Origin: a virus
Lineage: Duplodnaviria > Caudoviricetes
Direction: 5' to 3' (one strand)
IMG/VR virus record: IMGVR_UViG_3300042367_000084
Span: 1-28,310 of that record
DNA length: 28,310 nucleotides
The translations under genes and the position numbers were made by a program. The notes beneath the pieces are model-generated. The model did no database searches. It had not been told where the DNA came from and saw nothing but the letters and a program-made list of their open reading frames with translations. Below are positions 1,321 through 25,397 of this stretch, piece after piece (the first letter of the stretch is position 1; the number at the start of each line of letters is the position of its first letter).

Positions 1321-1812
1321 ATGCAGACTATCAAATCGTATTTATATCCAAATAAAATCATAGTTCAATTTCTGGACCCAGCCATCTTCACAGTGAGGAA
1401 TAGAGTCGTGTATAGCCGCCCAATTACAGTCTATCAAGGTATAGACAACCCGCTACAAGTTGTAGTTAACAATCAAGATCAAAAAACAATAAACACTACT
1501 GGTTACCTTGTGCAGTTAGATATACAAGATCCGATAAATCTTGGGTCTGTAGAAAGTCTAGCTGTGACTATGACTAATCCGACTAAAGGACAAGGCACCG
1601 TGACTATTCCACGAGATGTAGTTAACGCACTAGAGCAACGATTTTATAAAATAACAATTAAGTTAATTACAGTTAGCACTAATAAAGAGCAACCATTGTA
1701 CATTGATGACAATTACGGAGCTCAATTAGATTTAGAAGTATTACCGGGCTGGTATGAATCTATGCCGTTAACTTTAAATTCAGTAGAAGTAATCGATGGC
1801 GGAACAATTTAA
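1321..1812 (+). CDS. Probable virion structural/adaptor protein (BppU-like Ig fold), ending in IDGG
   Basis: Beta-rich 163-aa ORF with a VYQGIDN motif. Its stop overlaps the fibre gene start (TAATG). Confidence 0.65.
   Translation: MQTIKSYLYPNKIIVQFLDPAIFTVRNRVVYSRPITVYQGIDNPLQVVVNNQDQKTINTTGYLVQLDIQDPINLGSVESLAVTMTNPTKGQGTVTIPRDVVNALEQRFYKITIKLITVSTNKEQPLYIDDNYGAQLDLEVLPGWYESMPLTLNSVEVIDGGTI
1339..1346 (-). promoter_or_regulatory. Putative T4-type late promoter TATAAATA for the minus-strand gene, embedded in the CDS starting at 1321
   Basis: TATTTATA on the + strand is a perfect TATAAATA on the - strand, 54 nt upstream of ATG 1285. Confidence 0.55.
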
Positions 1813-4800
1813 TGACAATTTCATATGATAAACAAGTTTTAATTAAACGCGGTAATACTACTAGTGTTAGTAGTTATGTGGGTCCAATTGGCGAATTAGT
1901 ATTAAACACAGATACTTTTAAAGTATATGTACACGATGGCGTAACCGCTGGCGGGGTAGAAGTTACTGGATCAGGCGGCGGCAGTTATTCAAATGTTAAT
2001 GTTAAATCATACCTACAACAGTTTGATGGTAATATTGTTCCTACTGGCAACAACGTACATACCTTAGGCAGTGTCGATCACCAATGGAAAAGTTTATATG
2101 TAAGTAGTAATACAATTTATATTAATGGTATTCCGTTAAGCCTTGATATTGGCGGCAATCTTACAATAAATGGTAGCCCAATTAGCAGCACCATAACCTA
2201 CGGCGACATTAACGGTGCCCCGGTAGACATATCAGATTTAACTGACAGTGGCAACTTATTAATTGGTACTCCGGGCCCGCAGGGTCCTCAAGGAAATGTT
2301 GGTGCACAAGGCCCACAAGGCATTCAAGGCGAACCTGGTGCCACTGGCCCACGAGGCATACAAGGAAATGTCGGTGCTCAAGGACCACAAGGAGAGCAAG
2401 GCATTCAAGGAAATGTCGGTGCACAAGGACCACAAGGTGCTCAAGGCGAAGTCGGTGCAACCGGTGCACAAGGCATACAGGGAATACAGGGCAATGTTGG
2501 TGCTCAAGGAAGTACCGGTGCACAAGGCATTCAAGGCAATGTTGGTGCTACTGGCGCACAAGGCATACAGGGAATACAGGGCAATGTTGGTGCTCAAGGA
2601 AGTACCGGAGCACAAGGCATACAAGGCAATGTAGGCCCACAAGGAAGTACCGGAGCACAAGGCATACAAGGCAATGTAGGCGATCAAGGACCACGTGGCT
2701 TTACAGGTAATACAGGTGCAACTGGTGCACAAGGTGATACAGGTAATACAGGTGCAACTGGTGCACAAGGAACAAGTGTAACCCTATTAGGTAGTGTAGA
2801 TATTGTAGGTAACTTACCTGTAACTGCTAACGTGGGCGAAGGATGGATTGTTCAATCCAGTGGTAATTTATATCTATGGAATACTATATCAAGCACATGG
2901 AATGACATAGGACAGATTGTAGGGCCTCAAGGTGACCCAGGTGTACAAGGACCACGTGGCTTTACGGGCAACGTTGGTGCAGAAGGTCCACAGGGCATAC
3001 AGGGCGAACAAGGAATACAAGGCGAACAAGGCATACAAGGAAATATAGGTTCACAAGGCGAACAGGGCATACAAGGCGCACAAGGAATACAGGGCGAACA
3101 AGGAATACAAGGCGAACAGGGCATACAAGGCAATGTCGGTCCACAAGGCGAACAGGGCATACAGGGCGAACAGGGCATACAGGGCGAACAAGGAATACAG
3201 GGCGAACAAGGCATACAAGGAAATATAGGTTCACAAGGCGAACAGGGCATACAAGGCAATATTGGTGCTCAAGGACCACAAGGAGATCAAGGGCCACAGG
3301 GAGTTTCCGGAGCAGATGGCGCACCTGGAGCAGATGGTGCACAGGGACCAGCAGGTAATGACGGAGCACCCGGAGCAGATGCTTTATGGAACTTTACTGG
3401 TGCGTATGGTGGTGGCAATAGTTATGCTATCGGTGATGTTGCTACCTACGGTGGCGAAACTTGGTATCGCATTGATGCTAATGGCGGCAATACAGGTAAT
3501 ACACCCGCTGAAGGAACATTCTGGACTAAGATAGCAGAAAAAGGCGCTGCTGGTGTCGATGCTAATCCAGACGCTGTAGTCAACGGTCTATTTAATATTA
3601 CATTAAATGCCACCGGCGACTTTATTCCTAGTGCAGACATACTACAAGACCTAGGCAGTACTACAAAAAGATTCCGTCACTTATACGTTGGACCAGGATC
3701 AGTTTACATTGGTAACAATGTTATTACAGAAGCAGCAACAGGTGGACTAGTTCTTCCAGGTGTTACTCGTGCTACAGGCTATTACGCAGAAGAAGTTGAC
3801 GACGAAGATGAATGGGGCAGTAATCCCACTATCACAGGCACAGTTACAGTCATTGATGCTCAACGTTATGAAATACTAGCAGGACGACCAGCAAGTGCTA
3901 ATTACGCACCAGCAACTTATATAGCACAAAAAGACGGCAATAAAGTTGACGAAATAACTGTTGACGAAACTGGCGGCGGTTGGACTCAGACTGAAGCATA
4001 CTACGCTCGCGACAACAACATGTATGCTACTAACGTAGCAGATGCTATTAACAATTTTAACGCAGGCGACTGGCAACAGATTCCTTTCCGTGTAAATTTA
4101 AAAGCAGAAGACACAGAATACGAAGACATTTTTGGCGGTGGAACAACACTGCCTTCACAGTCTGGTCAAGAAGGAAAATTTTTAAGAACAGATGGCAGTA
4201 ATTTAAGTTGGGTCACAGTAACTGGCGGCAATGCCGACTTGGGTGATTTTAGCATTGACGGTAGTACACTTGAAGCTGATTCAATGACTATCAAAACCGT
4301 TGATGGTGAATTAAACATCGAGTCAGACAGTAATGTCTATGTTAAAGTCGCAGGCGGAACAAAGTATTGGTCATTTGCTAATGACGGAGTACTATCACTA
4401 CCAGAAGGCGGAGACATTAGAGACAGTAATGGTAGTTCAGTATTAGGTGGCAATGCCAACACTGGAGACTTTACATTCGACGCAGACACTATCACAAACA
4501 ATGACGGAATGAAACTGACTACCAATAGAGGCACATTGGCCATGGGTACTGACATGGAAGTGCCAGGTGTAGCACAACACTTCCACATTGCCTTTGACGG
4601 TAGTAATAGTAATCCGCCCGCTAGTGATCTGTTCTTAGGTGACGACAACAACTATGTTAAATTACCTGGATATGAACTCAACCCAACTGCTCAATATGGT
4701 GTGGAGATTGGCACAAACAACAGAGGCCTTGGACCACAGAATGTCGAAGTTAATGAAGTAGATGAACTTGTGCCACCTGGTGGCGTTTGGCGTTTCTTTA

Positions 4801-7028
4801 TTGACCACGACACCTATCCTAACTTGGGCTCTGCTGTTAGCGTAGGTGACACAGTGACCACATCATGGGGGACACCCATAACTGCCACAATTACAGACGT
4901 TGTTGAAGAACCTGGCAACTACTGGAAAATCCATGTTGCTCAAGATATTACCGCTGGATTTCTTGATGAGGGAGAAACAGTCTCATTTGGTGCTTCAGGC
5001 GACAGCCATACTTGGCGTTTTGGCACAGATGGCGGATTAGTATTCCCAGACGACACAGTTCAGACCACAGCCTACATAAGTGGCACTAACGCTAACACTG
5101 GTAACGTTGTATTCGACGGTAATCAAATGTATGTAGGTGGCACAGGTTTCTTAAATTTAGAAACCGATACCGGTGTTGCTGTTATTGGTACTAACGGTCC
5201 GCAACCATTACTTGTTAGTATAAACGAGGACGATAAAATATGGTCCTTTGATCCGGACGGTGGTATTACATTCCCAGATGCTACAGTTCAGACCACAGCC
5301 TACACTGGACAATCGGGCGGTAGTAGTACAGTAGTTCGCCAGGACACAGCACCTACAGCCTCAAATGGCACACTATGGTTTAACACAGTAGAAGGCAGAC
5401 TCTACATCAAGTATAGCGATGTTTGGGTAGATGCGGCTCCTTTAGTTCAACCTCCACCAGACACTGACATTGATGTTAATTCAATCACATTCCCAGACGC
5501 TACAGTTCAGACTTCAGCATACATTAATAGGTTGGACAACGGTGACTATACAGCATTGTTTAGTGAAGATGGGTGGTTAAGAGTACGCAAACCCAGCACT
5601 GAACAAAACTATTTTAACCTTGTACCGTTTAAAAACGAAGACGATACATATGGAGTACAAATTGACATAGACAATCAAGCAGGTTGGTCATTTTTAAACA
5701 ATGGTACTTTATCATTGCCCGCATCTAGCAATGACTTATATACAACAACTAACGCATTAATTAAATCTATCGCAGATATACAAATTAGTGCTGGAGATGA
5801 TGTAGGCAGTAATTGGGTGTTTGGCGGCAATGGTGATTTACTATTACCCCAAGGCAGCGTCATAGGTGAAACAGACACTACCACAGTTATTACACCGCCA
5901 GGAGCAAGTGCTGGTCAGAGTTTGGTTATTCGTCCAACTTCGATCACTGGAATTACTTCCAACTATCCAAGTGGATTTGCTGACGGTGATACTATTGTAT
6001 TATCTGTTACTCCTAATAATGGCGGCTCAGTAACCGGCACAGTGGATTACACATTTACAGGAGCCACTAGTGAGCAATTAGGTCGTGCGTTAACAGGCAC
6101 ATTGACATTTAGCAATGAAGGTTTTAAATCAATAACTTGGACTGTACCAGTATCAAGCAGTATCACAACCTTTACATTCACACTTAGCAATGCGTCAGGA
6201 TTTAGTATTAGTGCGCTTGCACCTTATACATTAACACGAACTGGTAGTAGTGAAACAAGTCACGTTCACCTTGTAGCAGGCGATCCCACAACCACTGACC
6301 TATATCTAGGTGATGATGACCAGTATGTCAAGATTGAGAAGAATGGCGGCGATGTTGTTATTGGCACTGACGCAAATACCAAACACTGGCGCTTTGATGA
6401 AACTGGTACTACAACATTACCAGGTGCCGTGGTCAACAGCACAGTGGCCAAGACTGGTGTAGTATTACCGACAACTACGGGTGTTGTTGACACACTGGCC
6501 CACGATTCTGTGCTGACCGGGCTAACTGATGCTACATACGGTCCGTTTACACGAGATGTAGTGACATTCAGTGTTGTGGTAACTAGCGGAGTTATTAATT
6601 CTTTCAGTAACATTACTGTCAGCGGTGATTTACCTGTTAACGCTGTAATAGGCACACTTGACAGCGGAGATATTAGTGGCACATCAGGTACTACTATTAC
6701 TTTGACAGTTGCTACAGTAGTACAAGCAACACCAACAGCCATAGACCTAACCAAATCTATCAACAAACTAACTGACGGTGTTTACACACTGGCCAACGGT
6801 GTAGAAGGGCAGATCATGTACCTAGTGGCACAAAATGGTGTTGTTCCGACTGACGTGAGTGTATTAGTTGCCAATAGTCGTAATATAGGCGTTGGCACGT
6901 TGTTGCCATTCAGCGTATACGACAATTCTGATGATAGTTATTATGGTAATATCGGTGGCTTCTGTACTTTAATCTTTACAGACGGTGCTTGGCAACAAAG
7001 TGGCGGAGCATGGGGTATAATAACTTAA
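1812..7028 (+). CDS. Long tail fibre-like protein: Mtd_N-type N-terminus, two collagen segments, CBM5/12-like module, repeated shaft modules
   Basis: VLIKRG...[12 protein letters not shown]...[10 protein letters not shown]-terminus; GXY repeats; W..Y..GD.ATY.G..W...W module at ~3387-3545; recurring WxFxxDGxLxF/LP motifs. Confidence 0.85.
2265..2777 (+). repeat. Collagen-like Gly-X-Y tandem repeat, segment 1
   Basis: Uninterrupted [15 protein letters not shown] triplets, with near-exact nucleotide duplications. Confidence 0.95.
2922..3380 (+). repeat. Collagen-like Gly-X-Y tandem repeat, segment 2
   Basis: GEQ-GIQ 18-nt units (ggcgaacarggmatacar), then GAD/GAP triplets. Confidence 0.95.
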
Positions 7029-23044: not shown

Positions 23045-23254
23045 ATGAAAATTGTTGAACTCACAAACAAACTACTACTAACAATCACAAACGAAGAACA
23101 CGAACTCTTAGAACAGTTCACTGGCGATAATACTATTGCTAAAAGTCAATTAGACGAACGCGAACAACTGATTGCAAATCAACTCACAGTCAAAGATGTA
23201 CTGTTAAGAACAAATGAAGCCGGCAAAATCTACTACAAAAAACGCATTGACTGA
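23045..23254 (+). CDS. Hypothetical protein, 69 aa, with MKIVEL leader
   Basis: AGGA SD and a late promoter upstream. Confidence 0.75.
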   Translation: MKIVELTNKLLLTITNEEHELLEQFTGDNTIAKSQLDEREQLIANQLTVKDVLLRTNEAGKIYYKKRID

Positions 23255-23705
23255 GATCGACGTTGAAAAGATACGTAGGTTTACAGAAGCAGAGTTGGCC
23301 AAACATAGTCGAGGTCCTCTGCCATTCTGCTATCAATTAGGCGCAGATACACTAATTGTAGGCAAGTACAAAATAACAAAAATAACAGACAAAAACTGGC
23401 GAATAACTAAAGATAATGAACAGATATTTGACTTTTTTAATAGAAAAGACGCCATATTTTATTGCATTGCCTTACACAAGCACAAATATGAATTAGCACA
23501 AGAAGTACGAGTTAATGATAATTTAATTGGTGTACTTGAATTTGACGCCATACTATATAGATATCGCTATAAACAAGCACAAGAGAAGAACGATGATTGG
23601 AATATCACACTATATTCTAATAAATACACTGAAACTATGCTTAGAATTGAAGAATCAAAGAAACAATTGAAGAAGTCTATTGTTTTGATAAATAATATTA
23701 AATAA
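23214..23705 (+). CDS. Hypothetical protein, 163 aa
   Basis: Long ORF filling the gap. The start is uncertain (41-nt overlap with the upstream gene). Confidence 0.7.
   Translation: MKPAKSTTKNALTEIDVEKIRRFTEAELAKHSRGPLPFCYQLGADTLIVGKYKITKITDKNWRITKDNEQIFDFFNRKDAIFYCIALHKHKYELAQEVRVNDNLIGVLEFDAILYRYRYKQAQEKNDDWNITLYSNKYTETMLRIEESKKQLKKSIVLINNIK
23687..23694 (+). promoter_or_regulatory. Putative late promoter GATAAATA
   Basis: Upstream of the AGGA SD and ATG 23727; a second TTAAATA lies at 23698-23704. Confidence 0.5.
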
Positions 23706-24796: not shown

Positions 24797-24806
24797 CTAA
24801 AACACA

Positions 24807-24856
24807 TTGACCTACCACTATAAATAGTATAGTATATTAGTATACTATTATAGGAG
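24807..24856 (+). promoter_or_regulatory. Overlapping sigma70-like (TTGACC-N17-TAGTAT) and late (TATAAATA) promoters, inverted repeat and SD for iscU
   Basis: TTGACC 24807-12, TATAAATA 24819-26, TAGTAT 24830-35; AATAGTATA (24823-31)/TATACTATT (24841-49); AGGAG 24852-56. Confidence 0.6.
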
Positions 24857-24862
24857 AGTATT

Positions 24863-24979
24863 ATGGCATATTCAACTGCTGTGTTAGATCACTACGAAAA
24901 TCCTAGAAATGTGGGATCTTTAGACAAGGAGAATGCGCAAGTTGGGACCGGAATCGTCGGTGCCCCAGCTTGCGGATGA
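24863..24979 (+). CDS. iscU: IscU N-terminal fragment, 38 aa; missed by the ORF track
   Basis: AGGAG SD; MAYSTAVLDHYENPRNVGSLDKENAQVGTGIVGAPACG followed by TGA matches IscU residues 1-38. Confidence 0.9.
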   Translation: MAYSTAVLDHYENPRNVGSLDKENAQVGTGIVGAPACG

Positions 24980-25245
24980 CAGGCGACGTCATGAAGTTAC
25001 AAATTCAAGTCGAAGACGGTATTATAATTGATGCAAAGTTCAAAACATACGGATGTGGTTCAGCAATTGCTAGTTCTAGTCTAGTAACAGAACTGCTTAA
25101 AGGTATGACCTTAGATGAAGCATCAACAATTAAAAATTCAGCAATAGCAGAAGAACTTGCATTACCGCCAGTTAAAATACATTGCAGTGTATTGGCAGAA
25201 GATGCTATTAAAGCTGCAATAAACGATTACAGGAATAAACAATAA
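24976..25245 (+). CDS. iscU: IscU C-terminal fragment, 89 aa
   Basis: MTGDVMKLQI...FKTYGCGSAIASSS...LPPVKIHCSVLAEDAIKAA; its ATG overlaps the N-fragment stop (ATGA). Confidence 0.88.
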   Translation: MTGDVMKLQIQVEDGIIIDAKFKTYGCGSAIASSSLVTELLKGMTLDEASTIKNSAIAEELALPPVKIHCSVLAEDAIKAAINDYRNKQ

Positions 25246-25397
25246 TGGAAGAAGTTGAAAGCCCATGTGTCGGCGTTTGCCAATTAATCAATGATGTATG
25301 TCGAGGTTGTAACAGAACAACCGATGAAGTAGTTGAGTGGTACAATTATACCAACGAACAAAAACAAGCAGTATTAGATAGAATATTTACTATATAG
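25245..25397 (+). CDS. DUF1289/YdhL-like small Cys-rich (putative Fe-S) protein, 50 aa; missed by the ORF track
   Basis: MEEVESPCVGVCQLINDVCRGCNRTTDEVVEW matches SPCxxxC...CxGCxR...E...W; TAATG coupling to iscU. Confidence 0.85.
   Translation: MEEVESPCVGVCQLINDVCRGCNRTTDEVVEWYNYTNEQKQAVLDRIFTI

Follow-up and report, generated by a model that had tools for sequence, protein, structure and literature searches.

To our knowledge, programmed bypassing has been proven in very few systems. The closest described counterpart of the locus analysed here is T4 gene 60, in which a 50-nt bypass lies within the mobA HNH homing-endonuclease element and for which Topo2L homologues are described (10.1101/2022.08.31.505936). 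In the available part of that study, Manning and Atkins report that the take-off and landing codons of gene 60 homologues always fit one tRNA and that AGG substitutes for the stop in such homologues, and they note considerable latitude in P-site re-pairing. Short gaps are represented by the terminase of Streptomyces phage phiHau3, where a UUA bypass spans 10 nt (7 nt in a prophage) and where bypass of a UAA variant was shown by mass spectrometry in E. coli (PMC10732093, available text). The mitochondrial byps of Magnusiomyces tolerate imperfect take-off and landing codons via two-out-of-three pairing (PMC5009743, available text).

Here we describe an iscU gene of a freshwater phage in which 8 extra nt, with a stop as their first codon, lie directly 3' of a hairpin. 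Judged from sequence, the element is real, selected and mobile and would work like the gene 60/mobA cassette, yet it fails three features that define the latter. Common to the iscU gap and to gene 60, as the available text presents it, are a Gly take-off codon, a stop or AGG as the next codon, a Gly landing codon, RNA structure, a position some 40 codons into the gene, and a free-standing HNH-type gene just upstream that is sometimes lost; in both, the gap is proposed to shield its carrier from the carrier's own nuclease and to outlast nuclease loss. The two differ in host gene (iscU, or NifU_N, here; type II topoisomerase for gene 60) and in gap size (4-10 nt in iscU versus 20-50 in the gene 60 system), and iscU is otherwise unsplit, unlike the gene 60 system. 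In iscU the whole hairpin sits 5' of the gap, with its end on the take-off codon; in gene 60 the conserved stem-loop extends into the gap, and the 5' stem-loop is described as unconserved. The gene 60 take-off stem-loop, whose 5' side holds the take-off codon and whose tetraloop falls in the gap, has no conserved counterpart in iscU, and landing codons that fit one tRNA in gene 60 frequently misfit in iscU. A mini Shine-Dalgarno, which gene 60 carries 5-7 nt before landing, would have no room inside the iscU gap; in our phage the take-off GGA itself lies 5 nt before the landing codon. The gene 60 system is further characterised by a nascent-peptide signal and by protein sequencing of its junction peptide.

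The phiHau3 system shares with iscU the short gap, the slow A-site codon and the 5' stem-loop (proposed for phiHau3), but its trigger is a rare UUA codon with a proposed regulatory role, few cases are known, and the available text gives no nuclease link (PMC10732093). Synthetic E. coli stop-hops resemble iscU in that the hop passes over a stop between like codons, and the review that describes them, in its available part, knew no natural in-frame case; byps differ in spanning 27-55 nt, in being mitochondrial and in using an unassigned codon (PMC5009743).

The gapped iscU locus

The window, that is, the whole stretch of DNA analysed, is a 28-kb virus record (28,310 nt) that encodes DnaB, a primase, an exonuclease and virion-type genes. 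Its iscU lies on the plus strand, with the Shine-Dalgarno (SD) sequence AGGAGAG just 5' of 24863. Codons 1-38 (MAYS...GAPACG; 24863..24976) correspond to positions 1-35 of the Pfam NifU_N profile and end in the predicted take-off codon GGA (Gly38; 24974..24976). The coding gap (24977..24984, plus strand) comprises an in-frame TGA (24977-24979), the spacer CA and the predicted landing codon GGC (24982-24984), after which the gene continues from GAC for 86 codons, Asp39 to the stop (24985..25245; NifU_N profile 34-124; phrog_8429), including GCGS and LPPVKIHC. The residues on either side, Cys37 (TGC, 24971-24973) and Asp39, are given in IscU ligand numbering. An initial annotation, made from the letters alone, had described an 8-nt break in PACGDVM, and TGC GGA TGA CA GGC GAC is indeed what the sequence reads; the 38-aa and 89-aa ORFs it named (24863-24979 and 24976-25245) exist as adjoining parts of NifU_N, the SD, GCGS and LPPVKIHC are intact, and ATGA occurs at 349, 7263, 17036, 18442 and 25778 as it had listed. 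The ATGA overlap in iscU itself (24976..24979, plus strand) places an ATG in frame with the C-half, with no SD of its own. Upstream, the 66-nt intergenic stretch (24797..24862, plus strand) contains no HNH-like gene in the window; relatives carry one here. Five other viral contigs have the exact window junction and match the window at 100% identity over 3 kb; these contigs, together with the recurrence found blind (below), rule out an assembly slip.

The surroundings of the gene offer some minor observations. A DUF1289 gene with four Cys (25245-25397) abuts the iscU stop, in the place where most relatives have iscA, and its product is possibly a small Fe-S protein. Two conserved ORFs (23045-23254 and 23214-23705) have a 41-nt overlap when the first ATG is taken as the start, and the true start of the latter probably lies later than its first ATG. 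At 1812-7028, a 1738-aa protein carries long collagen-like Gly-X-Y repeats and neighbours other large virion-type ORFs.

Recurrence of the gap and the hairpin that precedes it

We searched 7 of 64 parts of the collection with the C-half and took the best 80 of 588 relatives, chosen blind to the gap: eight had a gap at the same codon, the other 72 being intact. Relatives are thus not all continuous, and about a tenth of these close phage iscU genes are gapped and would pass for broken genes in annotation. Once identical junction regions had been merged, we had 93 gapped viral alleles with 33 distinct gap strings at the site PACG/DV. Gap lengths are 4 nt (1 allele), 6 nt (3), 7 nt (45), 8 nt (22), 9 nt (18) and 10 nt (4). 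The first gap codon is TGA in 44 alleles, TAG in 29, TAA in 15, TGT in 4 and AGG in 1, a stop thus being present in 88 of the 93, and the last gap triplet is GGN in 92. In general, a Gly codon is followed by a stop, then by a spacer of 0-4 nt and another Gly codon; the take-off GGN is universal in gapped alleles, but the search patterns demanded it. The Asp and Val codons after the gap vary synonymously. Take-off and landing codons agree in their first two bases in 92 of 93 alleles and fit one tRNA by ordinary wobble in 53, while the window pair, GGA to GGC, is mismatched for one tRNA. Several gap carriers are contigs of 260-525 kb.

Our patterns were anchored either downstream or upstream only, the latter being blind to the downstream side. 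The upstream-only pattern gave 119 matches, 114 of which are gapped iscU, and 113 of these resume at Gly-Asp-Val and one at Asp-Asp-Val; the other five comprise three unrelated sequences, one substitution and one one-base deletion. With no stop required by the pattern, 107 of the 114 gapped matches nonetheless have one. In metagenomes, a collection that overlaps the viral one, 107 of 120 matches are gapped iscU with gaps of 7-10 nt, all with the terminal GGN, and the remainder are 12 GC-rich chance hits and one intron-like gene. One further pattern mostly caught intact genes through an upstream TGTGG, and these served as controls. Across 185,579 bacterial and archaeal genomes, the gapped pattern, which covers GTGxxGAPACG-type genes, gave eight matches, none in iscU; among deposited phages, the junction had no DNA match, and 12 iscU/SufU records are listed there. 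A scan for Gly-stop-GG in two complete relatives and the window yielded 12 candidates, with a strong hairpin only at the three iscU sites, and there is no suppressor tRNA among the 13 and 33 tRNAs of the two complete relatives. In the literature outside subscription papers and preprint supplements we found no report of a gap in phage iscU.

Two contigs deserve separate mention. A 525-kb phage contig (G005) carries two iscU copies (139791-140057 and 411199-411465), at least one of them gapped (L364). In an AT-rich metagenome contig (L667), which is probably eukaryotic, iscU breaks in the same Gly codon into GT-AG intron-like sequence.

The initial annotation had pointed to a 5-bp stem within the junction (24976-24992). 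This stem exists, but it is weak (-2.8 kcal/mol) and its arms are lost across gap versions, and we rejected it as the relevant structure. What had been missed is a 16-bp RNA hairpin immediately upstream (24936..24974, plus strand), identified from the fold of the window and from covariation, with an outer helix of 11 bp (24936-24946 with 24964-24974) and an inner one of 5 bp (24947-24951 with 24957-24961); the pairing ends at 24974, with the first G of the take-off codon. In the window it folds at -29.5 kcal/mol for 86 nt (z -2.7). At least 10 of the 11 outer pairs can form in 92 of 92 gapped alleles and in 1 of 79 intact ones, and mean energies of the region are -24.6 and -12.8 kcal/mol, respectively.

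We then compared related sequences on the structure taken from the window's own fold. Among 42 distinct hairpin versions, 95.8% of cells are paired (34-40% in slid controls), and 41 two-sided changes were counted, a figure that none of 500 shuffles reached (shuffled mean 13.5); the covarying pairs, four in number, do not exceed what shuffling gives (94 of 500). At one of the pairs all four Watson-Crick forms are represented (C-G 21, A-U 18, U-A 2, G-C 1). Because this pair forces it, the amino acid encoded at the position is Gln or His in 93 of 93 gapped alleles but in only 2 of 91 intact ones, the other 89 having Asp, Thr, Asn, Ser or another residue. A search of Rfam gave no match. One intact iscU (L048) carries the full hairpin of a gapped allele (L033), and likely represents a precise loss of the gap.

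A putative upstream nuclease, a second gap and tract exchange

When neighbouring genes were clustered, 54 of 92 gapped loci and 1 of 79 intact ones had an ORF of about 200 aa that runs up to the start of iscU. A profile search over a larger set of loci, from which 13 alleles were excluded for short flanks, placed an HNH-like gene upstream of iscU in 68 of 86 gapped alleles, compared with 14 of 85 intact ones (p 5e-17, a value to be read with the alleles being non-independent). In relatives this gene ends at or overlaps the iscU start; it is absent from the window. Its product has a Cys4 motif, WNKG repeats and a segment of the form Asp-His...Asn...Asn, of which the Asp-His and the two Asn are invariant in 32 of 32 alignment rows. 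Matches to Pfam HNH fell below cut-off and those to PHROG HNH reached E 4e-4 to 1.5e-3; Foldseek returned mostly HNH nucleases, weakly (E 0.7-5), the best structural match (VIA) was 4h9d (Z 4.5, rmsd 4.2, 63 aligned), a PDB sequence search with the nuclease alignment gave nothing under E 0.1, and deposited phages yielded only three weak partial matches. From these features, the gene likely encodes an HNH nuclease.

Starting from the nuclease instead, we took the best 80 of 143 matches, 77 of which had an assessable locus. In 48 of these, iscU is gapped and has the canonical motif, and in 29 it is intact but always altered in VGAPACGDV (PSCG, TGSPACG, GDL); no intact canonical iscU lies behind the HNH-like gene at any of the 77 loci. 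Intact alleles without the HNH-like gene are canonical in 71 of 71 cases. A gap or a substitution at the target would be the pattern expected from two routes to self-immunity. The proposal that the gap is the footprint of a lost homing element is thus supported by the relatives with an HNH-like gene directly upstream, and the 8 nt of the window are probably the remnant of a mobile homing-endonuclease cassette, the nuclease gene of which this phage now lacks. A second, NUMOD3/HNH-like family also occurs directly upstream of iscU (L363:2593-3312, L180 and L031); with it, the alleles of L363 and L180 are gapped and that of L031, the one exception, is intact and canonical.

A dedicated scan at LPP/VKIHC uncovered a second gap in the same gene: 16 of 20 matches are iscU with a stop plus 2-3 nt after the Pro codon (contigs L547-L555, L558 and L560-L565). 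Here the take-off codon is CCN and the landing triplet CTN in 15 of 16 and ACG in one (5-nt gap), so that the two never match. The hairpin at this site is unrelated to the first, ends on the Pro codon and has an energy of -18.6 to -27.1 kcal/mol, whereas 1 of 168 intact alleles reaches -18 kcal/mol at this position. A DUF559/Vsr-like gene lies downstream in 10 of the 16 contigs, compared with one partial match in 148 intact alleles. Because the second element has a different hairpin and a different nuclease, the same hairpin-stop design appears to have arisen twice, independently, in iscU. The second gap also occurs in L341, L313, L340 and L401; some alleles combine both gaps, and would need two hops for one 125-aa protein.

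Comparison with other phages indicates that the first gap has moved between genomes. The window differs from the otherwise near-identical phage L002, whose iscU is intact, over about 150 nt (24913..25062, plus strand; joint at 24912-25063), but from about -60 to +45 nt it matches exactly gapped alleles of the more distant phages L359 and L001, and this identity with the nuclease-less window extends to a nuclease-bearing allele. A C-half tree of 156 rows was built without the 15 gapped alleles whose C-halves are short or incomplete. On it, gapped and intact alleles are intermingled, the state changing 29 times, with at least 10 changes forced by well-supported branches.

Outside the hairpin, pooled dN/dS, a check that the annotation had proposed for each half, is low in both halves: 0.19 (N) and 0.14 (C) in gapped alleles, 0.12 and 0.12 in intact ones (pairs kept at pS < 0.6: 1,019/3,916; 99/3,403; 464/3,741; 64/3,916). 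Nuclease-less gapped alleles give 0.18 and 0.06 from few pairs. The test is weakened because exchange with intact alleles can hold dN/dS low without expression of the gapped allele. The annotation's further suggestion of a recent pseudogene or assembly error is nonetheless refuted by the 33 gap strings, the covarying hairpin and the low dN/dS of both halves.

RNA data came from four metatranscriptome runs of one study, with junction contigs from two runs of one sample at a depth of about 7. These contigs span 24896-25092 with three other letters, no alignment gap and no deletion listed; the dominant contigs have 142 other letters in place of 24913-25062, which would fit the intact allele. Such contigs hide rare forms and may be DNA.

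A probable ribosomal hop and its rivals

We consider it probable that the gap represents a ribosomal hop, driven by the hairpin and shielding a homing target, in effect a scaled-down T4 gene 60/mobA cassette. From the sequence comparisons we infer a chain of steps in which the nuclease would cut intact iscU within the conserved GAPACG-DV codons, and repair would copy the nuclease gene and about 100-150 nt around the gap into the cut allele; the gap would break the nuclease target and render its carrier immune. In translation, the ribosome would pause at the stop directly after the take-off Gly codon, zipping of the hairpin would draw that codon out of the P site, and re-pairing at the next GG would give a 124-aa product, the IscU expected of the window, while ribosomes that terminate instead would release the 38-aa peptide. 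It is proposed that the gap persists after nuclease loss because the hop keeps iscU working. The kind of stop varies while its function is maintained, an indication that decoding is involved. Because gap lengths at the first site cover all three frames, we rejected readthrough or a single frameshift there; at the second site, readthrough is possible because 15 of 16 gaps are in frame. The main difficulty for the hop is that 40 of 93 codon pairs misfit one tRNA and that the second site never matches; in addition, five of the 93 alleles lack the stop.

The initial annotation had regarded the insertion as built to create a stop/start overlap, so that termination at TGA and coupled restart at the overlapping ATG would give 38-aa and 89-aa chains that assemble. 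Aeh1 nrdA, split by mobE, is reportedly such a gene in pieces, made as two chains, and shares with iscU a homing endonuclease tied to a broken conserved gene; there, however, the nuclease is said to lie between the halves, each with its own start, whereas in iscU it lies upstream and a second start is mostly missing. In favour of two chains, the ATG at 24976 lies in frame, the window makes common use of ATGA coupling, the ATG is kept in 18 eight-nt alleles, and the GGA/GGC pair of the window is unmatched; a restart could be a side route in this ATG-bearing subfamily. A two-chain IscU is unlikely because the ATGA restart, with an in-frame ATG before Asp, is available in only 18 of 93 alleles; the overlapping ATG is missing in the other 75, of which 60 have their only Met after Asp-Val, where a start would drop the conserved Asp, and 15 have neither. 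No in-frame ATG, GTG or TTG lies within 30 nt in 22 of 92 alleles, the ATG is out of frame in the 7-nt ATGAC forms, no SD precedes 24976, and Gly-Asp-Val is conserved ahead of the sole Met. The hairpin, the terminal GGN and the second site would also stay unexplained.

A ribosomal hop or RNA excision had been offered as a further pair of options, of which the short hop is the best-supported reading and excision, in which a nuclease and a ligase would recognise the hairpin, remove 4-10 nt and restore a continuous mRNA, is very unlikely. Excision needs no codon match, and so would accommodate the 40 unmatched pairs and the second site, and the GG direct repeat could mark its ends; it offers no reason, however, for any of three stops to be the first gap codon or for the last triplet at each site to resemble that site's own take-off codon. 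RtcB is found in none of five large carrier phage genomes, Rfam gave no match, and the RNA-library contigs across the junction retain the gap and so lean against excision, weakly, since contigs drop rare forms. Least likely of the three is a tolerated knock-out, in which a selfish cassette silences phage iscU, host IscU suffices and recombination with intact alleles conserves the sequence. The gene is described as auxiliary (PMC5332604, available text), and the interleaving on the tree, with tracts exchanged, would suit this account. It predicts, however, no covarying hairpin, kept stop, terminal GGN or narrow length range; the only early stops in complete gapped alleles (4 of 83) all belong to the second structured gap, and the low dN/dS of the nuclease-less gapped alleles, from few pairs, likewise stands against it.

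If the hop is true, homing nucleases would have, alongside introns and inteins, a third means of destroying the target while leaving the protein unchanged. The 33 gap versions at one codon, with a second element in the same small gene, form a natural allelic series that makes testable how far a 5' hairpin and a stop alone drive bypassing and how loose P-site re-pairing can be. A wider proposition could about equally well prove true or false when all of its parts are taken together: that in large aquatic phages homing endonucleases repeatedly assemble a minimal, portable device for hopping, consisting of a hairpin made from the gene's own codons and ending on the P-site codon, plus a stop; that the hairpin sets a jump of 4-10 nt while landing needs two of three bases; that the device arose twice in iscU, in both cases no more than three codons from a cysteine that is an Fe-S ligand; and that IscU output may depend on release-factor activity or, in Cys-codon alleles, on cysteine supply. 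In a gene for an Fe-S scaffold, a hungry Cys codon could act as a sensor of that supply.

Two kinds of allele depart from the stop. Contigs L191, L225, L268, L288 and L162 carry TGT, a Cys codon, in its place, and four of them resemble the 9-nt TAG version minus both A's. The shortest gap, of 4 nt (L111/L122, also L342/L353), lacks a stop, its A-site codon being AGG, and is preceded by a hairpin with a weakened outer stem.
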